A model generated the notes under the pieces. The model did no database searches. It saw nothing but the letters and a program-made list of their open reading frames with translations, and had not been told where the DNA came from. Source: Candidatus Undinarchaeota archaeon (GTDB taxonomy: Archaea > SpSt-1190 > JASMDC01). From it: DNA of 64,000 nt. Position numbers and translations under genes: made by a program. Positions 14,490 through 38,484 of this stretch are shown here, piece by piece. Within the stretch, counting starts at the first letter, position 1. Every line of letters starts with the position of its first letter. The stretch lies in the NCBI GenBank assembly GCA_964519305.1, contig CAZFHY010000012.1, forward strand, positions 1,003-65,002, written 5' to 3'.

Positions 14490-16436
14490 GTGTACGCGAT
14501 CCTCCTTGGACTGGCTGGGGCTTGCGCCTTTGGTGCCACTGCCACCGGCTCGGGCGTGCTGTGGACCTGGTCCGCGCTCTCCTTCCTCCTGGCTACATCA
14601 GTACTGGCGGCACTCCGCATCACGGGCGAGGACGACCCGGTTTCGCTCCTGGTCCACGCGTTCGCGCTTTTACTGGCCGTGGTCCCGGTGTTCCTGGCGT
14701 CCCCGGTGTTCCTGGTGATCATCGCTCTCCTCCTGACGCCCACCCTCGCCAGCGACCGGCCCCGTAGCAGGGACCGACAGGCGTACCGCTCGCTTGTCGT
14801 CCTCCTCGTGGTAGCGCTGATGATCGGTGCCCACTCGCTGAGGAGCTTCACCCCCATCGCCACCGGCGACGACCACTCGCTGTGCCGCGTACCCGGCCAG
14901 CGCAACAGACCATGCAACGATGCCGATGCGGGCATGCTCCGGGTGAGCTCCTGGATGACCTTCTATCACCCCGACATCCTCTACTACCTGGGGATCGTCT
15001 CCCAGATGGCCGCATCGGGCGAGCGCACCTACACCCATCCCCAGTTCGGCGGCAGGACCATCCCATACCCACCGGGCTACTTCGCCTTCTACGCGGCCTT
15101 CACCCGGTTCGACATCCCCGTCCAGGACGTGGCCCGGGCATTGCCGCCGGTGTTCACCTTCATGGTGCTCGCCTCGCTCCTCCACTGCTTTTCCTTCTTC
15201 ACGGGTCGCCGTTACCAGGCGCTCCTGGCCACCTTGCTGTCCCTGGGCACCTTCGTTACACACACTGCATGGAACAACCTGTACAGCTACTACCCTTACC
15301 TCCACTGGTTCAAGGGGACGCCCCTCGGTGTCGAGGCCATGTTCATGACCCCGCAGCAGGCAGGGCTGTTCCTCATACCTCTGTGCGTCGTGCTCTTCCA
15401 GCGGACGTTCCGCGACCGGACGCTGACGTCGGCCGTTCTGCTGGGTCTCTATACGGGCACGCTCCTAAACTACCACGTGCTCTCGGCGCTCCTCATGACC
15501 GTCGCCCTTCTGCCATCGGCCGTCCACAAGGCCTATCGTGGCCGTCCCGTGGCCGGGCTGGTGGTAGCGATCGTTGTGGCGTCCCTGGTCGCGTACACAT
15601 ACCTTGCCCAGGTCGGGCCCTCGTCGTCGAAGTTCATCGAGCGCCGACGGTGGTACTCCAAGGAGCCGCGCGAGTACCTCCAGCAGTTCGGCATCGCCGG
15701 GGTGTTGGCCCTGTTCGGCACGTACGGATGGTGGCGCCGACGTCACGAACTGGAGGAGCAGGCCCACCTGCTGACGGACGGCACCATGGTCCTCCCGCCC
15801 CCGTCGGGAGGCACCTTCCTCCTCTGGGCCGTGGGCTCGCTCGTGTTCATCAACGCGTTCACCCTCACCCAAACCCACGACATCGACCGTGTGATGACGC
15901 TCTTGTGCATCCCTGTCGGTTTCTTCGCATCCTTCCCCCTCCACGCCTGGGCCTCACGGCACGAGCGGACGGCGCGAGTGGTCGTCCCCCTGCTGCTGGT
16001 CCTCAACTCGCTGGTGCTCGTCAAGATCGCCCACGTGCTGTCAGTGATGCACGTCGCCCATCCGCCCGTGGACGAGATGTGCGGGCTGCTCACCGACAGG
16101 CTGGAACAGGGTGCCACCGTGCTCGTCGCGAACCATGAGCATGCCCGTGGGTACGAGCTGGTGACCGCCCTGTGCGGGTTCCCGGCATGGGTGGGGAACG
16201 AGCATCTGGCGCTCACGTGGAGGCTAGTCTGGAGCGAGCGCATGAAGCTCTACGAACGCGTGCTCGACGATCCCCTGGAGCACTGCGACCACGCACACGC
16301 CGAGGGCATCGCCGCCTTCGTGCTACCGCCGAGACTGTGGCCCGGGGAGGATATGGACGTGTGGCACACGACCGAATATTACGTCGTGGGCGACTGTATC
16401 GAGGCCCGGGAGCACGCGGGGCCGCCAGTAATTTAA
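14490..16436 (+). CDS. large polytopic membrane protein (648 aa), possibly a GT-C-type glycosyltransferase
   Basis: More than 12 predicted TM helices with an acidic EDD in the first loop. It has no WWDYG motif, so it is not AglB/STT3. The ORF is continuous in a GC-rich background. Confidence 0.5.
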   Translation: MYAILLGLAGACAFGATATGSGVLWTWSALSFLLATSVLAALRITGEDDPVSLLVHAFALLLAVVPVFLASPVFLVIIALLLTPTLASDRPRSRDRQAYRSLVVLLVVALMIGAHSLRSFTPIATGDDHSLCRVPGQRNRPCNDADAGMLRVSSWMTFYHPDILYYLGIVSQMAASGERTYTHPQFGGRTIPYPPGYFAFYAAFTRFDIPVQDVARALPPVFTFMVLASLLHCFSFFTGRRYQALLATLLSLGTFVTHTAWNNLYSYYPYLHWFKGTPLGVEAMFMTPQQAGLFLIPLCVVLFQRTFRDRTLTSAVLLGLYTGTLLNYHVLSALLMTVALLPSAVHKAYRGRPVAGLVVAIVVASLVAYTYLAQVGPSSSKFIERRRWYSKEPREYLQQFGIAGVLALFGTYGWWRRRHELEEQAHLLTDGTMVLPPPSGGTFLLWAVGSLVFINAFTLTQTHDIDRVMTLLCIPVGFFASFPLHAWASRHERTARVVVPLLLVLNSLVLVKIAHVLSVMHVAHPPVDEMCGLLTDRLEQGATVLVANHEHARGYELVTALCGFPAWVGNEHLALTWRLVWSERMKLYERVLDDPLEHCDHAHAEGIAAFVLPPRLWPGEDMDVWHTTEYYVVGDCIEAREHAGPPVI

Positions 16437-16439
16437 TCC

Positions 16440-17573
16440 TTGGTGTACTACGGACATCCCATGGATGACGGTTCATCGACCACGACCCTCACCTCCACGT
16501 CCTTCGGCCAGCGGCTCGTAGGATTGTTCTTCGCAGGGTTCGCATCCATTTTCTTCATCGTAGGTATCGGTGCCGCGCTGTTCGCCGAGAACGGACCGCC
16601 CATATTCTTCCTCATACCCTTCCTCGCTATACCCGGATTGTTCTTGCTCATCGGGCTCTACCTCCTGCTATCGACCGAGGAGGTCATCGTCGACCGTGGT
16701 CGGAGAGAGATACATATTGTATCCCGGGTCCCGCTCTACACCCTTAGCGACGATTGTGTACGGTTCGGCCTCATCCAGGGCATCACCATCCAGCGGGAGA
16801 TCCGCATCCACCACTCGAACAAGGGTGGTAGCAGCAGGTACGAGGTATGGGTGCTCTACCTCCAGCTCGCCTCGGGTGAGAAGAAGAAGCTGTCCGAGTC
16901 GTCCAGCGAGGTCGAGATCAGGGGCCGGTCCGAGGCACTCGCCAAGGCCACCTACCGGCCGATCATCGACAACTGCACGAGCCCCCCCACGATACGCCAG
17001 TACGATGAACTTGACATCCCCGCGTCCGAGAGCCTAAGACGGGAGGATTTCGAGCGCGTGTACCAGCTCCCACAGGGCCACCCTGTGGCCGAGACGCATC
17101 TCGCCGAGGCAGTAGTGTTCACGTGGTCCATGCGCAATCCTGTCATCGGTACGTTCCTGCTCATCTTCGCGATCATCTGGCTCGGTGGCCTTATCTCCGG
17201 TCCGGGTGCCGGGATCGCGATCGCGCTGAATGCGGGAACTGTGTTCGCTGCGTTCTTTGCCGTGTTCATGCTCCCATTCCTTGCCGCTGGACTGTTCTTG
17301 CTGGGGGCGGGCCTGCTCATGTTCGCAGGCGAGCAGGTGCTCGAGGTGTCGGCCCGCGCGGTCAGCCTCACCACTCGTCTCTATGTCCCCATCCGCACGA
17401 GGACCGTTTCTACCAACGCCATCGAGGAGGTACGGAAGGTCAAGCGCATGGGCGGGCCGGCCGTCGAACTGGTTTCCGACGAGGAGGTGCTCACCCTCCA
17501 GGGGATGGGGAGCATCAAGGACGTGACCGTTATGGAGGACAGGCTCAAGACGGCGCTGGTGTACCGACGATAG
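16440..17573 (+). CDS. membrane protein, hypothetical (two TM-rich regions flanking a soluble domain)
   Basis: 377-aa ORF directly following the previous gene. Confidence 0.45.
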   Translation: MVYYGHPMDDGSSTTTLTSTSFGQRLVGLFFAGFASIFFIVGIGAALFAENGPPIFFLIPFLAIPGLFLLIGLYLLLSTEEVIVDRGRREIHIVSRVPLYTLSDDCVRFGLIQGITIQREIRIHHSNKGGSSRYEVWVLYLQLASGEKKKLSESSSEVEIRGRSEALAKATYRPIIDNCTSPPTIRQYDELDIPASESLRREDFERVYQLPQGHPVAETHLAEAVVFTWSMRNPVIGTFLLIFAIIWLGGLISGPGAGIAIALNAGTVFAAFFAVFMLPFLAAGLFLLGAGLLMFAGEQVLEVSARAVSLTTRLYVPIRTRTVSTNAIEEVRKVKRMGGPAVELVSDEEVLTLQGMGSIKDVTVMEDRLKTALVYRR

Positions 17574-17599
17574 GGCGCTCTTGCATAGCAACTTAAAGG

Positions 17600-17839
17600 T
17601 TGTATCCGTTACATTCTCCGATGGAGAAGCTCGAGCTCATCGCGTTCCTCAACGAGGCATTCATGGTCGAGGAGGTGGAGGTGGGCGTCAAGATAGGCGC
17701 TCTAATCGAATCGGTCCTCTGCGCGCCTATAGATAATGGCTCCAAGAAGGAGATGGTGATCAGGCTCAAAACCCTTATGAGCGAGAGCCAGTACCACTCA
17801 CGCGCGATCTCACAGCTCATCAAGCACGAGGTGGGCTGA
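17600..17839 (+). CDS. small alpha-helical protein, partner A of paralogous cassette 1
   Basis: 79 aa. It is a paralogue of 19308..19532 (shared pattern L.FLNEA.-VEE-E..VK...LIE.V...PI.....KEM..RL.TL..E...HS...S). Its stop overlaps the start of the next gene (ATGA). Confidence 0.5.
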   Translation: MYPLHSPMEKLELIAFLNEAFMVEEVEVGVKIGALIESVLCAPIDNGSKKEMVIRLKTLMSESQYHSRAISQLIKHEVG

Positions 17840-18579
17840 TGGGAGATGCAACAGACGCGCTGGTCGCCCGGTTCAAGGAGATCCGCGAACTGGAACAGAC
17901 GGCGTATGACTTCTACACGTCCCACATCGACCAGATGGACGATCCTAAGATGCGCGCTGTGGTCGAGGCCATCGCTGAAGAGGAGGCCCGGCACGTTAAG
18001 ATCGCCAACGAGCTCATCGCTCTGGCTATCGCCGCGTCAGAGACGGGTGTATCCTCCTACGATGAGGGGGGCTCGGAGGATATCGGCGATGCCCTCAGGG
18101 GGGCGAAGAGCCCGTTCGCTCTCATAGCCCATGGCGAACTGAGTTCTTACTACCGGGCGACATCGAGCATCATCGAGTCGTCCATGAGGATGGGGCGGAA
18201 GGTGCTCTACCTCTCGCTCAACAAGTCCGCGGACCGCATCGAGACAGCATTACGGGACGTAGGGACGCTCATCGGCGACGTTACGTTCATGGATACATCG
18301 ACTACCAAGGACGGACGTCCCCTGGATACTAAAGACCTCGTCGGTCTCTCCATCGAGGTCGTCAAGGCCCTTGAGGACCACAACGTTGTCATTGTCGACG
18401 CGCTGTCCACTCTCTCGATCTATCACCCACTGAACGACATCCGTCGGTTCGCCCACAACCTCATCACTGTGATCAAGGACCGTGAGGCTGATATTGCGTT
18501 CCTCGACCTCGAGCCCGAGGGGAAGCTAAGTCAGGATGCGACGCTCGCCTCGCTCATGGACGTCGTAGTGAATGTGTAG
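17839..18579 (+). CDS. two-domain protein: N-terminal helical domain with E..H motif + C-terminal degenerate RecA/KaiC-like domain lacking Walker A (partner B of cassette 1)
   Basis: N-terminus ELEQTAYDFYTSHIDQMDDPKMRAVVEAIAEEEARH. The C-terminus shows beta-strand/helix alternation reminiscent of KaiC/RadA-like domains (KVLYLSLNK...VVIVDALSTLSIYH...DIAFLDLEP) but has no GxxxxGK[ST]. It is a paralogue of 19532..20281. Confidence 0.55.
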   Translation: MGDATDALVARFKEIRELEQTAYDFYTSHIDQMDDPKMRAVVEAIAEEEARHVKIANELIALAIAASETGVSSYDEGGSEDIGDALRGAKSPFALIAHGELSSYYRATSSIIESSMRMGRKVLYLSLNKSADRIETALRDVGTLIGDVTFMDTSTTKDGRPLDTKDLVGLSIEVVKALEDHNVVIVDALSTLSIYHPLNDIRRFAHNLITVIKDREADIAFLDLEPEGKLSQDATLASLMDVVVNV

Positions 18580-18583
18580 GAGC

Positions 18584-19219
18584 TCAGCCTGAGAGCCGCC
18601 CTTTCGCCCATTCACCGAACGACCGTCCGAACGCCTCGGCATCATCCCGTCGCGCCTCGACCTCGTCGTCCTTCACCCACAGCTCGCGGTCGAACGTGGT
18701 CATTCGAACGTCCGTTAGCCCGCGTGTGATGATGACGTCCTCTCCCTTCAGCTCCCAGCCATAGGTACCGAAACCGCCAGCGGGTCGACCTGCCAGGGCG
18801 GTAATCTGCATATTCCCGAGTAGTCCCTTGATAGCCTCGGAGATGTTCTCGAACTGGCTGGGCGAGCCCAGGAGCACAGCATCGGCCAAGAGCACCTCGG
18901 GCATCGTCTCGCCGGAGGCCTCCAGCACCGCTACCGAGCACTCCGTCTGGCGGACGCCATCGGCGATGGCCCTTGCCAGCGCGGCCGTACGCCCGCTAAC
19001 GCTGTCGTACAGGACCAGCACACGTGGCGGCCCCTTGCGCGAATGCTCCAGGGTGACGGCGTACTCCAGGCACGCCCGGATACATGCTTCGCATTCGGTG
19101 CAGTCCACGGGCCGCATGACGACGCCCTTGCCATCGATGAAGTCGAACACACGGGTAGGGCACACTGACACACAGGTACCCGCTCCCGTGCATCTCCTGT
19201 AGTCGATCCGCGGGGGCAT
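18584..19219 (-). CDS. 2x[4Fe-4S] ferredoxin domain fused to a flavodoxin-like (NADPH-dependent FMN reductase/WrbA-like) domain
   Basis: N-terminus CTGAGTCVSVCP and CTECEACIRAC. This is followed by RVLVLYDSVSGRTAALARAIADGV...LLGSPSQFENIS, a flavodoxin-type FMN-binding pattern. Confidence 0.75.
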   Translation of the reverse strand: MPPRIDYRRCTGAGTCVSVCPTRVFDFIDGKGVVMRPVDCTECEACIRACLEYAVTLEHSRKGPPRVLVLYDSVSGRTAALARAIADGVRQTECSVAVLEASGETMPEVLLADAVLLGSPSQFENISEAIKGLLGNMQITALAGRPAGGFGTYGWELKGEDVIITRGLTDVRMTTFDRELWVKDDEVEARRDDAEAFGRSFGEWAKGRLSG

Positions 19220-19307
19220 TGGCGTGTCGATGGACGGGAACTGATAAAAGTGTGACCTGCGGGGCCGGAAAGTCGTTTATTTATCTCTTGTCCCTTTAAC
19301 ATCCTCT

Positions 19308-19532
19308 ATGGCTACGGGCGATAAAGAACTCGCTATGTTCCTCAACGAGGCCCTCCTCGTGGAGGACCTGGAGGCGGCCGTCAAGGTCAGCAGCCTCATC
19401 GAGCGAGTCACGCTATCGCCCATAGAGGACGAGTTGAAGATGGAGATGCTCACCCGGCTCAACACCCTCCTGCGCGAGACTCATGCCCACTCTTTGGTAT
19501 TCTCCAAGGCCCTGAAGGAGGTGCTGAGCTGA
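19308..19532 (+). CDS. small alpha-helical protein, partner A of paralogous cassette 2
   Basis: 74 aa, paralogue of 17600..17839. Its stop overlaps the next start. Confidence 0.5.
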   Translation: MATGDKELAMFLNEALLVEDLEAAVKVSSLIERVTLSPIEDELKMEMLTRLNTLLRETHAHSLVFSKALKEVLS

Positions 19533-20281
19533 TGGCGGACGACCTTCGTGACCACCTTATCAAAGAGTTCACCGCGCTCAAGGACCTCGAGCGCCAGGCC
19601 CACGACTACTACACCGACCACCTCGACCTGATCAAGGACAAGAAGCTCAGAGAGGTCGTGTCCAATATCGCCGATGTAGAGCTGCAGCACGAGTCCATCG
19701 CCGGCGAGCTCATCAAGCTGGCCGAGTCGCTCCCCTCGGGCGAGGCCAAGGTGGAGATCGAGGGCGCGGGCGAGGCCATGTCCGCCCTTGAGGAGGCCAC
19801 CGAGGACCTTGACAGCCCGATGACGCTCCTCGTCCACACGAGCCTCGAGGACTATCCCCGGACCTGTCAGGCCCTCATCACTTATTTCAAGAAGCAGGGC
19901 AGGCCCATCCGCTACGTGTCGGTGAACAAACCTGCGTCCAAACTCAAGCGCATCCTCAAGAAGCGCGGGGCCAAGGTCGACGACGTATCGTTCATAGACC
20001 CGGCCACATCTGGTGGAATCATGCTGGACCCCAAGAACCTCACCACGCTGTCCGTGCTCTTCACACGCAACTCCGAGAAGGACATGGTGGTCATCGTCGA
20101 CTCGCTCTCGGTGCTGTCGGTGTACCACTCCAAGGACATCCTCCAGCGGTTCGTCCACTCCACGACCATGGGCTCGAAAAGGAAGGGCGTCGACCTAGTG
20201 TACATAACCATGGACGCGGAATCGGACATCGGTAGCGATCCGAGCTTCGAGGCGTTCTTCGACGAGGTCGCGAAGGTCTAA
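19532..20281 (+). CDS. two-domain protein, partner B of cassette 2 (helical E..H domain + degenerate KaiC/RecA-like domain)
   Basis: Paralogue of 17839..18579, with the same architecture: LERQAHDYYTDHLDLIKDKKLREVVSNIADVELQHE; ...IRYVSVNKP...VVIVDSLSVLSVYH...DLVYITMDAES. Confidence 0.55.
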   Translation: MADDLRDHLIKEFTALKDLERQAHDYYTDHLDLIKDKKLREVVSNIADVELQHESIAGELIKLAESLPSGEAKVEIEGAGEAMSALEEATEDLDSPMTLLVHTSLEDYPRTCQALITYFKKQGRPIRYVSVNKPASKLKRILKKRGAKVDDVSFIDPATSGGIMLDPKNLTTLSVLFTRNSEKDMVVIVDSLSVLSVYHSKDILQRFVHSTTMGSKRKGVDLVYITMDAESDIGSDPSFEAFFDEVAKV

Positions 20282-32372: not shown

Positions 32373-34109
32373 ATGGACGATGACCAGCTGCGACGGCTCA
32401 TCCTTACCCATGCACTTGATAATGCTCAGCGCCACGATGGCGCGGCCCAGATCGGTGCGGTCATGGGATCGCTCATGGGGGGGTCCCCGGAGCTACGGCC
32501 CCGTGCCAAGGAGGTAAAAGCGCTCACGCTCGAGATCATCGCTGAGGTCAACGCCATGGACGAGGCCACACGGGAGGCCAAGCACGCCGAGCTAGTTCCC
32601 GAACCCATGGGCAAGAAAGAGAGCAAGCGGACGGGTCTCCCCCCGCTCGCTGGCGCCGAGGACGGGAAAGTTGTCACGCGGTTCCCACCCGAGCCGAACG
32701 GCTTCCCCCACATCGGTCACGCCTACTCGGCCCTCATCAACTACCTATACGCCAAGATGTACGATGGCAGGCTCGTGCTCCGGTTCGAGGACACCAATCC
32801 CCGAAAAGAGGAGGTGCGGTACTACGACGCCATCAAGGAAGGCCTCACCTGGCTGGGTATCGAGTGGGACGAGGAGCTTCGGGTGTCGGACGAGATACCT
32901 CTTATCATAGAGCAGGCCGACAGGCTCCTGCGGGGCGGTCATCTATACATATGCGACTGCCCGGCAGAGACCATCAGCGCCAACCGCCGTGCTGGACGCC
33001 CCTGCAGCCACCGTGACCGGTCCATCGAGGAGAACGTGGCACTGTGGGAGAGCATGAACGCCCGAATGGTCGGCGAAGGTGAGATCGGTGTCCGCCTGAA
33101 GGCGGACATGGAGGCCGAGAACATGGTGATGCGTGACCCTATGATGCTCCGCGTCATCGACCATCCGCATCCTCTGCACGGCGACAAGTACTATGTCTAC
33201 CCGACGTACGACTTCGCCGTGGCCATCCAGGACTCTCGCCGCGGTATAACCCACGTGCTCCGGTCCAACGAGTTCCAGCCGCGCATCGAGCTGCAGGAGT
33301 ATATCCGCGGCCTCCTGGGCCTCCCCAATCCCAGGATCATGCAGTACTCACGTTTCTCACTGGAGGGCACTCCGACCTCCAAGCGCCTCATCAAGGCCCT
33401 CCTCGACGAGGGTGTAGTTGAGGGGTGGGACGACCCGCGGCTCTCCACTCTCGCCGGTCTCCGCAGACGTGGTATCGTCCCCAAGACCCTGGAGGACCTA
33501 TCCGTCGAGATAGGACCTTCCACCGCAGAGCCCGTGATCAGCTGGAAGCTGCTGGCGGGCATCAACCGCAAGAACATCGATCGCCTCGCGTACCGGGCCT
33601 TCGTCGTCGTGGACGCCATCGAGCTCAACGTCGAGGAGGCTCCCGAGCGGACGGCGCGGTTGAAGCGACATCCGGGCAATCCCGAGATGGGTGAGCGGAC
33701 GTTCGAGACAGGCGCTCTGTTCTGCATAACACGGGAGGACGCGGACAACCTCCAGGAGGGGGACGTGGTCCGCCTCAAGGACCTTTACAACGTCCGCATC
33801 GAGGGTCGTGACGAGCACACCGGACGCATCCTCGCCGTGTACGACGGCGATGAGGTCGTCCGAGGCATGACCAAGCTCCACTGGGTCCCCAAACGGACCG
33901 CTGTCAAGGTCCACGTGTACTTCCCGGGGATGCTGGAGGACGGTAACGGTGAGCGGATCGCTGATTCCATGCCCGTCAAGCGTGCTCTTGGCGAGCCCCC
34001 GCTAAAGGTCGCCCATCCCGGCGACCTCGTCCAGATGGAGCGTATGGGCTTTGGCAGGATAGACCGGATAACCGACGGCGTGGTCCACATCATCTACGCG
34101 CATGACTGA
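32373..34109 (+). CDS. gltX: glutamyl-tRNA synthetase (archaeal/eukaryotic type)
   Basis: Class I HIGH motif (PNGFPHIGHAYSALINY). Blocks typical of the GluRS/GlnRS family (RFEDTNP, GWDDPRLSTL). The length of about 578 aa fits archaeal GluRS. Confidence 0.9.
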   Translation: MDDDQLRRLILTHALDNAQRHDGAAQIGAVMGSLMGGSPELRPRAKEVKALTLEIIAEVNAMDEATREAKHAELVPEPMGKKESKRTGLPPLAGAEDGKVVTRFPPEPNGFPHIGHAYSALINYLYAKMYDGRLVLRFEDTNPRKEEVRYYDAIKEGLTWLGIEWDEELRVSDEIPLIIEQADRLLRGGHLYICDCPAETISANRRAGRPCSHRDRSIEENVALWESMNARMVGEGEIGVRLKADMEAENMVMRDPMMLRVIDHPHPLHGDKYYVYPTYDFAVAIQDSRRGITHVLRSNEFQPRIELQEYIRGLLGLPNPRIMQYSRFSLEGTPTSKRLIKALLDEGVVEGWDDPRLSTLAGLRRRGIVPKTLEDLSVEIGPSTAEPVISWKLLAGINRKNIDRLAYRAFVVVDAIELNVEEAPERTARLKRHPGNPEMGERTFETGALFCITREDADNLQEGDVVRLKDLYNVRIEGRDEHTGRILAVYDGDEVVRGMTKLHWVPKRTAVKVHVYFPGMLEDGNGERIADSMPVKRALGEPPLKVAHPGDLVQMERMGFGRIDRITDGVVHIIYAHD

Positions 34110-34150
34110 GCACAGTAGCGGACTGCGCCCACGTCATTCGTTCCGGGCGT

Positions 34151-34894
34151 CTACTGCTCTTCCTGCTCGGGTTCCTTCTGCACACCGATCATCGGGAAGT
34201 GGTGGCCGTGGGCGGCCTTCTCATAGGCTTGTGCCACGTAGAGGAAGTTCTCATCGTCCATCTCCTCGGCGAGCTCGCGGGCGCGGAGGTTGAGCGTCTG
34301 GTAGGCAAGGGACTTCTCGGCCATCTTGTCCATGATCCGCTCCCTGACGTCCTTGGGCGGGACGATCTTCCGGAAGAAGCTGAGCTGGCCGATCTCCCGA
34401 TGGATCTCAGCATCGATACTAGGTATGTCGAGATCGTTGTACAGGTCATGTAGCTCGGACAGACCCTCGGACTTCTCGGCATGGCCTTTGACGATGTTCT
34501 TCTCAAGGCGCTGTCCCTCCTTCATGAGACCGTAGGACTTGAACGCGTCGACAGCGTTCATGGCGGAGACGACCAGACCGTAGGGATAGAGGAAATAGCC
34601 CCAGATAGCTGCTCCAAAAGCATCGCTCTTGATCTTCGCAACAGCGGAATCCTGTGTGTTCTTGGACAACGTGCGGAGTTCGTTCACATCGTAGGTGGAT
34701 CCTGATTCGGTGTAGAGAGTATAAGAGGCGCCATCCTGTTCGAGGGCATCGTTGAGGTTGTGAAGGACATCCTTGTACGTGGGCCCTTTGCTGAACACAC
34801 CGGGGGGCTCCATCCGCGGTTCGGCCACCACATAGGTGTTCAGACCGGGGACATCGTAGATCTCGATATTCTCAGTTTCGATGATGTCTTCCAT
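34151..34894 (-). CDS. hypothetical protein
   Basis: ORF with a protein-like composition. The start was chosen at the internal ATG (MEDIIETEN). No recognisable domain. Confidence 0.4.
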   Translation of the reverse strand: MEDIIETENIEIYDVPGLNTYVVAEPRMEPPGVFSKGPTYKDVLHNLNDALEQDGASYTLYTESGSTYDVNELRTLSKNTQDSAVAKIKSDAFGAAIWGYFLYPYGLVVSAMNAVDAFKSYGLMKEGQRLEKNIVKGHAEKSEGLSELHDLYNDLDIPSIDAEIHREIGQLSFFRKIVPPKDVRERIMDKMAEKSLAYQTLNLRARELAEEMDDENFLYVAQAYEKAAHGHHFPMIGVQKEPEQEEQ

Positions 34895-35177
34895 GATAAT
34901 CACTCTCTTATGGAGCGCGGGAGCCCGAAGACCGTCTTTTATAGTTTTCCTTTCGACGTGCGCCCCCATCGCTGACCAGGGAGGTTGTTTGGATAGTCTA
35001 ATCTACAAGCTCCTGTTTTGGCCCACAGGATCCAGAAGTCTGATCTACACTAACGTATGAGTCAACCACTGCATCCGACCTGGAAGTACAGATGTGAGTA
35101 TATTGTAGTGAGCCACTGGCGCCAACAAATACCTCGCACGATCGTCGAACGACGAGAACGAAGCAATATCGGGGCTT

Positions 35178-35285
35178 CTAGATGCGGCGCGCCTTGCGCT
35201 GCATCTTACGGCGCCGCTTCTTGCGCCACTTCCAGCGGCTCTTCTTGCCGACCCGCTTCTTCCATGGGTGACTTGTTTTCGACAA
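35178..35285 (-). CDS. rpl41e: ribosomal protein eL41 (L41e), 35 aa, probable TTG start
   Basis: Minus-strand frame encodes (M)SKTSHPWKKRVGKKSRWKWRKKRRRKMQRKARRI, which is extremely Lys/Arg-rich. The core RWKWRKKRRRK resembles the eL41 signature (eukaryotic [25 protein letters not shown]). It is too short to appear in the ORF track. The overlapping listed ORFs (35045..35380 - and 35057..35320 +) are in other frames. Confidence 0.5.
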   Translation of the reverse strand: MSKTSHPWKKRVGKKSRWKWRKKRRRKMQRKARRI

Positions 35286-35399
35286 GTTATATCACTCGTA
35301 AGCGACTGTGGAGTGGATAGCTCTTTTAAGGGTTTCGGCTCGGGCGGGCCCCGAGGGAAGATACATAAAGATTTGCCCACTCGAAAGTCAAGCCTTCAT

Positions 35400-35474
35400 G
35401 GGCTCGTGGTGTAGTTTGGATAGCATGGGGGCTTGCGGAGCCTCAGATCGCGGGTTCAAATCCTGCCGGGCCCA
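35400..35474 (+). tRNA. tRNA-Arg (anticodon GCG)
   Basis: Manual cloverleaf fold: acceptor stem GGGCUCG/CGGGCCC (one G-U), D-stem GUGU/GCAU with a D-loop containing GG, anticodon stem GGGGC/GCCUC with loop UUGCGGA (U33, anticodon GCG, G37), 5-nt variable loop, T-stem GCGGG/CCUGC with loop UUCAAAU, and discriminator A. No encoded CCA. Confidence 0.75.
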
Positions 35475-35476
35475 TC

Positions 35477-35499
35477 CGGGGGGGACCTTCCCCCCCGGT
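35477..35499 (+). other. perfect GC-rich hairpin immediately 3' of the tRNA (CCGGGGGGG-ACCTT-CCCCCCCGG)
   Basis: 9-bp inverted repeat with a 5-nt loop, read directly from the sequence. A possible processing or termination element. Confidence 0.5.
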
Positions 35500-35844
35500 T
35501 AACACCCACTTAACAGTCGTAGGACTCGTCGCCATTTTCACGCGCTCAGGTTAGTTTTTACCAGCTCATACAGGTAAGAATCGCTGTACGGGATACATGC
35601 CCTATAGTCCAGCACACTATATATAGCATCGAAGTATGCGGTCCGAACGAGGCCTTTTGGGGGATATAGATGTACTGAACTCCCACTCCGGAGATAAATC
35701 GAAAGCCAAGAATCTTAATAAGGCTTAATAACGCTTAATTAGGTGAATTAAGCCATATTCGTGCGATTTAGGCGCACAGGCGACGGAAAAGCTTATAAAC
35801 AGGTATTCGATGGTTCGCTATTAGTAAGAAAGCAGGTGACAATC

Positions 35845-36036
35845 ATGCTCATCATCGATCCGGAAATGTACGATGCCTACCAGGCCACTCATGGCGTAGT
35901 AGGCGCCGAGCCCAATACCATCTTGGACATGGGCTTTGGTAACTACAATCCCTTCGATAGATCCGAGAACGACTACGTCGTTAAGGGTTACTGGGAGCCT
36001 GTCTACCAGCCCGAAGAGGACCTTGACAAATATTAG
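35845..36036 (+). CDS. small acidic protein, paralogue A (63 aa)
   Basis: MLIIDPEMYDAYQATHGVVGAEPNTILDMGFGNYNPFD... A GGTGA Shine-Dalgarno-like sequence sits 7 nt upstream and a TATA about 50 nt upstream. Paralogous to 36354..36548. Confidence 0.45.
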   Translation: MLIIDPEMYDAYQATHGVVGAEPNTILDMGFGNYNPFDRSENDYVVKGYWEPVYQPEEDLDKY

Positions 36037-36100
36037 ATATCATTCTTTTTTCCGTACCCCGTCCCCCATCGATCCCGCCTCCCCGGCGGGATCGATACCC
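36037..36100 (+). terminator. oligo-T tract plus 12-bp-stem hairpin (atcgatcccgcc-tcccc-ggcgggatcgat)
   Basis: ttcttttttcc directly after the stop codon, followed by a perfect inverted repeat. Confidence 0.45.
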
Positions 36101-36353
36101 CCCTTTTCCCAATCGCCTCCCTGTGTGAGCTGTTCCCCACGTCACAGGTGTTAAAGTAGCGTTAAGATGGACCGTTCCGACAATATGTCGTATCACACAA
36201 GTATGCGGTCCGAACGAACTTCTAATAACCCTTAATATTACTTAATTTGGCGAATTAAGCCATATTCGTGCGATTTAGCCTCATAGGCAAAGGAAAACCT
36301 TATAAACCGGCCAAGAATGGTGTGAGAACCGTCCGAAAAAAAAGGTGAACGCG

Positions 36354-36548
36354 ATGCTAATCATCGATCCTGAGATGTTCGAGGCGTACCAGCGCACCCA
36401 TGGTGAGCTGGGCACTGAGCCCCGACCGGAGTTGGATCCGGGTTTTGGGGACCTCGATATATTCAGGAACGATCTGTCCGAGCATCCGATGTACGGGGAA
36501 CAGGACCATAAGGACGACCCGTACAAACAGGAGGACACGTATCACTGA
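36354..36548 (+). CDS. small acidic protein, paralogue B (64 aa)
   Basis: MLIIDPEMFEAYQRTHGELGTEPRPELDPGFGDLD... A GGTGA sits 6 nt upstream. Same upstream and downstream signals as paralogue A. Confidence 0.45.
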   Translation: MLIIDPEMFEAYQRTHGELGTEPRPELDPGFGDLDIFRNDLSEHPMYGEQDHKDDPYKQEDTYH

Positions 36549-36612
36549 TCATACTTTTTTATCCGTACCCCGTCCCCCCAACGGCCCCGTCCTCGTGGCG
36601 GGGCCGTTCCCC
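36549..36612 (+). terminator. oligo-T tract plus hairpin (aacggccccg...cggggccgtt)
   Basis: acttttttatcc after the stop, followed by a 10-bp inverted repeat. Confidence 0.4.
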
Positions 36613-37086
36613 CCTTTTTCCTTGCTTATCCCGCCCGGATATATCTATCTTCACGGGAAGGCCCTTCGCTTGAACGCCGTTCCATCCGTATTAAGTATTA
36701 ACAAACCCCGATCACCAACAGTACACGTAGGTCAACTGAAAAAAGCCTACGGATTTCGTAATCCCTGCAGCCCCACCTACGAGACGCCATGAGGTGTGCG
36801 GTTAAAAGACAGACGGAAAGACAATCCTTTTAAGGCGACCATGACTCGTGGCCACCGCCCGCATGGGCAAGCAAAAAAAGATGCATAGAATGGAACAAAG
36901 GAGGAATGCGAAATGCTTTCACTGGTTCCCGGCCCGATGAACATCCAGCGGCCCATCGATACAATGACCCTACAACACTACACGAGCGACGAGTACGACC
37001 ACCCAGAGGTCAAAGCACCTCTAAACCGTTTTCTTGATGATGACCTGACCACGTTCTAGACGATCCACGGATATGTCAGAACAGGC

Positions 37087-38484
37087 TCATTCCTGTTTCT
37101 GCGGGGGCCCGTCACCGACACGCGCCCACACATCACCCAAGTGGTTGACAAGGACTATGTCGTCCTTGGCCTTCTTCTCCAGCCCCTCCAGCAGATCCAG
37201 CGTGCGCTCGATCTCGGAACGGGCTGCAATAGGTCCGGCCGCAGGATCGTAGATGTCCTGCCAGACAAGACGGATGAACACCGCCCGCCCCGGAGTGCGG
37301 AGGTCATAGAGATGGAGATACTCCCGGGTCAGAGTACTGCGCAGCCCACAACACCAGAGGAACTCCACTTCCACAGTGCCATCGAGCACGGCCGAGAGCT
37401 CGCCCTTGCTCTGGGGTACGATTATCTCCCCCTCTACATCCTTACGGGGTACTACGAAGAACCATTGATCCATGCGAACGGGATCGTCCGGTACCGGGAA
37501 CGCTGTCAGCGCGCGTTCGCCCAGGTGTGTCCTGATGAGATCGAGCACGTTCGGAGCCGCCAGGTCGTGGCGGCGCCGGAACTCGGCGGCTTCCTTCAGG
37601 CTCTCCAAGAGGTTCTTGACGCGCTGGTCCTCCTCGTCGAGCCCCAAGGCCATCTGTGCGCACTCTACGGCACGGTCCAGCTTCCCGAGCTCGTCGCTGC
37701 ATACCGCCAGGTTCAACCATGCCTCGCGGAACGACGGGTCCAGGGCCACGGCCCGCTCGAAATCCTGGACCGCACCCTTGAGCTCTCGACGCTCCATATG
37801 GAGGGCACCGAGATGGAAGTGTGCATCGCTGCTGTTCGGATCGGCCTCAATGGCCTTGTGATAGGCGGCCCTCGCGCCGTCGACATCCCCCGAACGTAAC
37901 AGGCAGAGGCCCAGGTCGAGCCATCCCTCGATGAGGGTGGACCGCATCCCTACAGCACGTTCGAAGGCCTCACGTGCCTCCTGCCATTTCCCGAGAGAGG
38001 CGAGGCCGACACCGAGGTTGAGCCAGAACTCGGCCCGTGCGTCGTCGATGGACAAGGCCATACGGGAGCACATCACTGCCTCCTGATGCTTGTTCTCCTC
38101 CACGAGCCAGATGGCGAGGTTGTTCCAGGCCACGCAGTCCTGGGGGTTCTTCTCGATGGCCTTGCGGCAGGCCATCTCGGCGCGTGTGTACTTCCCCTCA
38201 CCTGCGAAGTAGAGGGCGAGGTAGTCGTAGGCCTCGTTCTCCGGATTGGACTCGAGAAGGCGCTTGAAGCACCGCCGCGCACCCTTCTCGTCCCCGAGCT
38301 CCCCCAGGGCGAAGCCTAGGTAGATGAGCACTTCCGGTGCGTCTGGTTCGATACGGAGAGCGGTCCGCAGCAATCGGGCGGCCTCCTCGTACTCCCCATT
38401 GCGGTAGTGCTCCTTCCCATCGAGGAGGAACACGCTCTTGGCGCCCACGCCACGCTTCGGATGGCCAATTATATAAAGGCCCAC
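37087..38484 (-). CDS. TPR-repeat protein
   Basis: At least 8 TPR units in the N-terminal two-thirds (e.g. [59 protein letters not shown]); non-TPR C-terminal domain. Confidence 0.7.

Follow-up and report, generated by a model that had tools for sequence, protein, structure and literature searches.

A two-gene archaeal cassette pairing a putative half-ferritin hairpin with an inactivated KaiC-like domain: a candidate metal or oxygen input to KaiC signaling

A 64,000-nt stretch of DNA from a Candidatus Undinarchaeota archaeon (hereafter, the window) carries two copies of a two-gene cassette, A1-B1 and A2-B2. In each copy, the gene for a small helical protein, A, is followed directly by the gene for a larger two-domain protein, B. 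The N-terminal domain of B resembles half of a ferritin, and the C-terminal domain resembles the inactivated KaiC-like ATPase domains known as iKaiC. What might such a cassette do? The best overall explanation, to which we give a probability of about 0.5, is that it feeds information on metal, oxygen or redox state into archaeal KaiC signaling by means of a split ferritin-like site.

In the encapsulated ferritin EncFtn, the ferroxidase centre (Glu32/Tyr39/Glu62/His65) is a di-iron site that lies between two chains, and Fe2+ binding stabilizes the dimer (PMC5012862). In the mechanism proposed here, A would pair with the N-terminal hairpin of B to give a heterodimeric four-helix ferritin-like bundle with a di-metal site at the interface. 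Because metal binding stabilizes such an interface in EncFtn, Fe(II) occupancy or oxidation state would be expected to control the association of A with B. Depending on this association, the iKaiC domain would change its conformation or its oligomeric state, and as a non-catalytic adaptor it would dock on a KaiC-family ATPase or assemble together with it. In this way the archaeal KaiC signaling network would receive iron, oxygen or redox signals through the A-B pair. A more specific version, in which the pair forms a natural split heterodimeric di-iron centre whose metal- or O2-dependent assembly switches the iKaiC domain, so that DPANN archaea would have an iron/oxygen sensor feeding into KaiC signaling, is put forward tentatively.

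The N-terminal domain of B

A first-pass annotation of this DNA had raised the possibility of a ferritin- or rubrerythrin-like half-site in B. There is now evidence of two kinds in support of this idea. First, the domain has the right relatives. Single-sequence scans with the N-terminal ~60 residues matched EncB, EncFtn, Rubrerythrin and MbfA, all below threshold, and B scored under the cut-offs of TIGR04535 (26 versus 125 bits) and NF058679 (28.8 versus 90 bits). Word-index homologue searches returned close relatives only; it was an exhaustive profile search with hidden Markov models (HMMs) that exposed the B family, with 748 proteins at E ≤ 1e-3 and ~50 cluster representatives having the full two-domain architecture (235–254 aa). 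The resulting family profile matches the multi-hairpin “bacterioferritin” 9viw (E 3e-12), the designed di-iron helix-loop-helix proteins of the Due Ferri series (E 2e-7 to 4e-6) and EncC (E 5e-5), as well as the di-iron-carboxylate protein TM1526, bacterioferritins, symerythrin and rubrerythrin. An AlphaFold2 (AF2) model of B1 places the two helices of the hairpin at residues 2–32 and 36–68.

Second, the predicted metal ligands are conserved. All conservation counts for B come from a 46-member alignment with ~20% identity, in which E19 is present in 46/46 proteins, Y26 in 45/46, E49 in 41/46 and H52 in 44/46 (E20/Y27/E50/H53 in B2). E19 is one of three invariant residues in the family, together with D187 and F204 of the C-terminal domain; Y104, Y124, N128, K129, F150, P164 and L167 are nearly invariant. 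The profile matches and the conserved ligand positions support assignment of the N-terminal domain as an encapsulated-ferritin-type di-iron half-site hairpin and a putative metal binder.

Relatives of the hairpin also occur in tandem. Three stretches of 9viw_A (306 aa) and six stretches of P0052 (1273 aa) match the profile of the B N-terminal domain, the former at E 3e-12. Multiplication of the hairpin appears to be recurrent in the superfamily of ferritin-like hairpins.

The C-terminal domain of B

The C-terminal part of B had been described as a KaiC- or RadA-like domain that has lost its P-loop, and this description holds: the RecA/KaiC alpha-beta fold is present and the Walker A motif has been replaced. 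Single-sequence scans of this part gave sub-threshold matches to DUF7504, KaiC and FlaH, and a Pfam scan gave no match between B1 or B2 and DUF835. The family as a whole is more informative. At E ≤ 0.01, 37 of the 46 members match DUF835 and 24 of the 46 match DUF7504; KaiC is matched by 18/46. Because B1 and B2 themselves fall under the gathering thresholds, the domain is best described from its sequence as a divergent relative of the DUF835/DUF7504 iKaiC class rather than a formal member. DUF835 (PF05763), DUF7504 (PF24336) and MEDS were reportedly recognized by Makarova, Galperin and Koonin in 2017 as inactivated KaiC-like domains of archaeal signaling. DUF835 is tabulated as “iKaiC,” an inactivated KaiC-like ATPase domain, and response regulators carry it as an output domain (Galperin et al. 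2018, PMC5847659).

Catalytic motifs were judged by alignment with the genuine KaiC ATPases encoded next to distant family members. Where KaiC has the Walker A motif GGxGSGKT, B reads HGEL-SSYY and its relatives KTEDYxH. In place of the catalytic LEES, the B family has LNKS or YNKI, such that the Glu pair E-E becomes N-K. All 46 members retain the Walker B Asp (D187), and the last ~50 residues of KaiC, which include the LKLRG segment, are missing from B.

The domain also occurs in other settings. Many of the profile-search matches are stand-alone C-domain proteins of ~180 aa, and in others the domain is found in tandem or behind coiled-coil, membrane or other N-terminal regions. For example, P0030, P0074, P0078, P0082, P0125, P0126 and P0144 have the domain in tandem or behind N-terminal regions that include long Lys/Glu-rich coiled coils, a large membrane or extracellular region and other uncharacterized domains. 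Judged from these sequences, such varied contexts are typical of a modular adaptor.

The A protein

No match to A was found in Pfam, NCBIfam or the sequences of the PDB, including with an A-family profile, and a Foldseek search with the A model found nothing but generic helical hairpins (E > 0.3). A1 matches the A-family HMM at E 2.5e-33. L10, E12, E17, E30, L52, H59 and S64 are invariant across A proteins, with E or D at position 55. The AF2 model of A1 (pLDDT 78.6) is a hairpin with helices at residues 3–34 and 39–71, that is, of the same dimensions as the hairpin of B. An hhalign comparison of the two hairpins places E17 of A on E19 of B and H59 of A on H52 of B (P 0.016), and the B HMM matches helix 2 of A (E 3e-3).

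Two residues of an antiparallel hairpin, i and j, lie at the same height if i + j is about twice the position of the loop centre. By this geometry, and as the models suggest, E19 of B would face E49, and E17 of A would face position 56 in the segment (E/D)55-(T/S)56-x-x-H59. A hairpin of the same size, a level conserved carboxylate and His, and a weak alignment by two methods give indirect support to a bundle completed by A. Given the weak alignment to the B hairpin, A plausibly supplies the half that B lacks for a four-helix di-metal bundle. No natural A-B fusion protein is present among the profile-search matches.

Linkage of A and B and the KaiC neighborhood

Linkage between A and B is strict. 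In a search with an A-family HMM, each of the 10 B genes examined has an A gene directly upstream, at 8 independent loci: the two in the window and those at L007, L008, L009/L011, L010, L012, L013 and L014. L009 and L011 encode an identical B protein, are probably one region and were counted once. The overlap between the stop codon of A and the start codon of B is kept even where B is only ~22%–24% identical to B1. The distant loci are low in GC (27%–42%) and DPANN-like, and one member is annotated as Woesearchaeota. Narrower scans for related loci yielded one genome locus and three metagenome loci.

The distant loci also connect the cassette to KaiC. In 4/4 distant loci that are informative for neighbors, A-B lies beside a gene for a genuine KaiC ATPase with a single domain (PF06745, E 1e-54 to 1e-59). 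The ATPase gene is divergent from A-B in L007, L011 and L012, and it begins 3 nt after B in L008.

Two of these neighborhoods have further features. In L008, genes for a 678-aa protein with MG2/Ig domains and a 798-aa protein with a thioredoxin domain lie on the same strand downstream of A-B-KaiC (L008:2085-6548) and may belong to its transcription unit. L015 encodes a stand-alone C-domain protein and has no A gene. There (L015:391-4650), the DUF7504-only protein is adjoined by a divergent KaiC ATPase gene, followed by genes for a 4HB_MCP/HAMP protein and a HAMP-HisKA-HATPase kinase; from its domain content, this looks like a compact KaiC/iKaiC/two-component cluster.

Weighing the proposal

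Several points weigh against a split metal sensor coupled to KaiC. The AF2 model of B1 was built from 5 sequences and is of moderate confidence (pLDDT 73), and that of A1 was built from 2 sequences. B misses the curated cut-offs for EncFtn (PF22277, 17.1 versus 27 bits), for DUF7504 (21.2 bits for B1 and 16.7 for B2 versus 27) and for KaiC (PF06745, 19.4 versus 26.6 bits). The similarity between the A and B hairpins is statistically marginal. A has no Tyr, and it has T or S in place of the Glu of ExxH, so that a complete di-iron site cannot be taken for granted. The argument for an A-B heterodimer is drawn from linkage, topology and weak homology. The distant sample is small, with five distinct loci, of which four are informative for neighbors (L013 is too short). 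No KaiC-type ATPase gene was detected in the 64-kb window, so KaiC coupling in this organism would be an extrapolation from distant relatives. Lastly, by analogy with EncFtn, the B hairpin could form a homodimer.

That analogy underlies the main rival, in which B alone is a ferroxidase or iron handler: EncFtn-like hairpins would form homodimers, the iKaiC domain would scaffold a ring, and A would be an accessory (a chaperone, a regulator or a cap), with iron detoxification as the function. B has the complete set of EncFtn ligands at identical spacing, and EncFtn builds its site from two identical chains. The degenerate ligand set of A and the lack of a KaiC gene in the window would also be accounted for. 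We nonetheless consider this reading unlikely. A translationally coupled linkage that is strict across very distant lineages suggests that A is a stoichiometric partner. Related C-terminal domains lie beside KaiC ATPases, in one case with HAMP/histidine-kinase genes as well, which points to signaling rather than storage, and the use of DUF835 as a response-regulator output domain (PMC5847659) points the same way. Moreover, neither an encapsulin-type gene nor another mineralization compartment is found among the called genes within ±10 kb, and the distant loci likewise have no encapsulin-type gene.

A second alternative is that the hairpins are purely structural. They would bind no metal, the conserved E, Y and H residues would make protein contacts, and A-B would serve a KaiC-family ATPase as an adaptor or inhibitor that senses nothing, much like a small regulatory partner. 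Helical hairpins are generic, A has no canonical motif and no detectable ferritin homology by itself, and metal binding by B is predicted from sequence only. Near-invariance of the four EncFtn ligand positions at the same spacing, in 46 proteins that are ~20% identical, is difficult to reconcile with this idea, as are significant profile matches specifically to di-iron proteins, including designed minimal hairpins. We judge it quite unlikely.

Organization of the locus

All five open reading frames (ORFs) of the region had been placed correctly in the first-pass annotation, with the exception of the start of A1 (Table 1). For that gene the ORF and its end at 17839 stand, and the start is most likely ATG 17621 rather than TTG 17600, because gene calls on identical contigs use it and the family alignment begins there.

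Table 1. Genes of the two cassettes and the gene between them, with coordinates in the window
Gene	Coordinates	Strand	Product and basis
A1	17621-17839	+	72-aa helical hairpin protein; ORF with A2 as paralogue
B1	17839-18579	+	246 aa; residues 1-68 EncFtn-like putative half-ferritin hairpin, ~90-246 predicted iKaiC domain
Ferredoxin-flavodoxin fusion	18584-19219	-	211 aa; family matches
A2	19308-19532	+	74-aa helical hairpin protein; A1 paralogue
B2	19532-20281	+	249 aa; B1 paralogue with two domains alike; weak EncFtn and DUF7504 matches

The two cassettes had also been called paralogous and identically organized, and sequence comparison agrees. B1 and B2 align end to end with 34% identity (E 3e-45), A1 and A2 are 47% identical (E 1e-19), and both A/B junctions have the sequence TGATG. 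As B1 and B2 share only 34% identity, the sequences indicate that A1-B1 and A2-B2 are old paralogues. TGATG is a one-base overlap of stop and start codons, which fits translational coupling of A and B. According to tblastn and an HMM scan, there are exactly two A-B pairs in the window.

Are the small ORFs real genes? For A1, B1, A2, B2 and the intervening ferredoxin-flavodoxin gene, dN/dS is 0.14–0.28 (A1, 0.15; A2, 0.28; B2, 0.14), calculated against orthologues ~85% identical, from L014 for A1 and B1 and from L010 for A2 and B2. Hence, all five are under purifying selection and genuinely code for proteins, the small ORFs among them.

Scans for bacterial promoters and terminators carry no information in an archaeal host. 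Reading of the sequence alone reveals a TATA-like AT-rich box, TTTATTTAT, at ~19278-19286, ~25 nt 5' of the A2 ATG. No promoter or operator motif common to the regions upstream of A1 and A2 was found. The one DNA repeat detected is the conserved coding core of A, and no flanking repeats were found around the cassettes.

Identical or near-identical contigs are found repeatedly in marine metagenomes, the longest being 131 kb. An orthologue of B2, P0006, is annotated as a protein from a metagenome-assembled genome (MAG) of Candidatus Undinarchaeales, a group that belongs to DPANN (kingdom Nanobdellati) in the NCBI taxonomy. The closest genome on record, ETNP3_MAG_31, is likewise labeled Candidatus Undinarchaeales by its submitter.

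The ferredoxin-flavodoxin gene

Between the two cassettes, on the opposite strand, lies a gene for a ferredoxin-flavodoxin fusion. It matches Fer4 families (Fer4_10, E 2e-8) and the flavodoxin family TIGR01753 (E 2e-12; 47.8 bits, under the curated cut-off of 123). The S-x-S-G-x-T loop of the flavodoxin part is presumably what would be expected for FMN binding. The first cluster motif had been read as an unusual C-x5-C-x3-CP spacing, and this reading is mistaken: it is the standard CxxCxxCxxxCP with the second Cys changed to Ala (C-T-G-A-G-T-C-V-S-V-C-P). Direct reading of the translation gives 7 Cys, arranged as CxxAxxCxxxCP and CxxCxxCxxxC followed by L, and the protein does not have two complete CxxCxxCxxxCP motifs (8 Cys). 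A 7-Cys pattern is typical of 3Fe-4S plus 4Fe-4S ferredoxins. The sequence suggests one 3Fe-4S or non-Cys-ligated cluster and one 4Fe-4S cluster. Some gene callers shorten the fusion to 188 aa, with loss of the first Cys motif.

Does this gene belong with the cassettes? It could be argued that both cassettes and the fusion form a single redox module in which electrons pass to or from the di-iron site. Di-iron proteins often need an electron donor, the genes are tightly packed here (4 nt separate the stop codons of the fusion and B1, which are convergent, and 88 nt separate the fusion from A2, which is divergent), and L014, with ~85% nucleotide identity to the window, keeps the order of the 377-aa membrane protein gene upstream of A1, A1-B1 and the fusion. 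The first-pass annotation had tentatively tied the fusion to the cassettes on their arrangement, and had named beforehand the finding that would undo the link, namely cassettes elsewhere without the redox gene. This is what is observed. The fusion gene is present at 0/5 distinct distant A-B loci and is confined to the window and close relatives. The link is weakened further by L010, from a related Undinarchaeales MAG, in which the gene for the 377-aa protein is followed directly by the fusion gene, A1-B1 is absent, and a 3.4-kb insertion (L010:2213-5639) lies between the fusion gene and A2-B2. The insertion contains genes for a 612-aa DDE transposase (PF01609) of an insertion sequence (IS) and a Dus tRNA-dihydrouridine synthase. 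Because the fusion gene is on the opposite strand, it is not co-transcribed with the cassettes, and there is no shared promoter element. A single redox module is thus improbable. Because distant loci lack the gene and L010 decouples it from A1-B1, the link to the cassettes is unsupported, and sequence comparison identifies the gene as a lineage-specific neighbor rather than part of a conserved module.

Among close relatives, A1-B1 is polymorphic for presence or absence, with 17581-18588 of the window corresponding in L010 to ~37 bp (L010:1514-1551) that separate the gene for the upstream membrane protein from the fusion gene. A 78-bp segment (window 19173-19250), which includes the first codons of the fusion gene, is found on both sides of the L010 insert. 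L014 and the window part at 19250, the same point as the L010 insert.

Genomic surroundings

Two multi-pass membrane proteins, of 648 and 377 aa, are encoded on the + strand directly upstream of A1 (14490-16436 and 16440-17573). Both are kept in L010 and L014, and neither matches Pfam. Other genes in the window encode DsbD-like and AIR-synthase-like proteins, eRF1, a TPR protein, an M29/NicX-like protein and an aminoacyl-tRNA synthetase. The presence of eRF1 confirms that the DNA is archaeal. The region 34000-38000 has a GC content of 0.54–0.57, compared with ~0.61 elsewhere, and surrounds the sole tRNA gene of the window, tRNA-Arg(GCG) at 35399-35477; an integrated element or a genomic island may account for this dip.

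PADLOC and PHROGs yielded no match, and a defense or phage origin of the cassettes is accordingly rejected. That they are mobile defense or toxin-antitoxin-like two-gene cassettes, as their small-plus-large overlapping layout, the absence of A1-B1 from L010 and the DDE-transposase IS beside A2-B2 in L010 might suggest, is scarcely credible given housekeeping neighbors in all loci, an old duplication (34% identity), no flanking repeats and no toxin-like fold.

Functional implications

What would a metal-dependent A-B input mean for archaeal signaling? First, archaeal KaiC-like ATPases have been proposed as signaling hubs, and their inputs are almost wholly uncharacterized. The A-B module offers a concrete and testable input, in which iron, oxygen or redox state would be read as metal-dependent pairing of hairpins. 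If this is correct, no sensory input with a ferritin fold would have been described for the KaiC network before. Second, half-ferritins, which build a metal site across a dimer interface, serve iron storage in encapsulins, and the module would carry their principle over to signaling. Third, a split site of this kind would be nature's equivalent of the hairpin dimers designed in the Due Ferri series. Fourth, DPANN genomes from oxygen-minimum zones are very reduced, and because two diverged copies of the cassette are kept, its function likely matters to the host.

Comparison with known systems

Among known systems, EncFtn (the EncB/EncC cargo; PF22277) is the closest match to the N-terminal domain of B. 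Both have a two-helix hairpin with the pattern E-x6-Y...E-x2-H (E19/Y26/E49/H52 in B versus E32/Y39/E62/H65 in EncFtn). B differs in having neither an encapsulin gene nor a targeting peptide, and its hairpin is followed by a KaiC-like domain. Moreover, EncFtn pairs identical chains, whereas B probably pairs with a different protein, the degenerate hairpin A. The Due Ferri proteins (DF1/DF2) are minimal hairpins that dimerize into a di-metal four-helix bundle, and they align with the B hairpin over ~48 residues that include the E and the ExxH (E 4e-6). They are artificial, so the resemblance speaks to what the motif is capable of and not to shared ancestry.

The C-terminal domain is most similar to the iKaiC domains (DUF835, DUF7504 and MEDS): like them, it has a RecA/KaiC fold without the catalytic motifs, is modular, and in relatives is adjacent to KaiC. 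B differs from them in its predicted half-ferritin N-terminal domain and obligatory hairpin partner, and no KaiC gene is adjacent in this window. The single-domain KaiC-like ATPases PH0284, FlaH/ArlH and SSO2452 keep Walker A and bind ATP, whereas B has HGEL-SSYY and N-K at the corresponding motifs. Inactive RecA-fold subunits are also known from Elongator (Elp4/5/6) and from the Rad51-paralogue/Shu complexes; these are eukaryotic, have no metal hairpin, and share no detectable ancestry with B beyond the fold. No report of a fusion of half-ferritin and iKaiC domains, or of an obligatory hairpin partner, was found, with the proviso that the primary 2017 iKaiC paper may already describe it. Half-ferritins and iKaiC domains are each known; A-B is a new architecture made from known parts.

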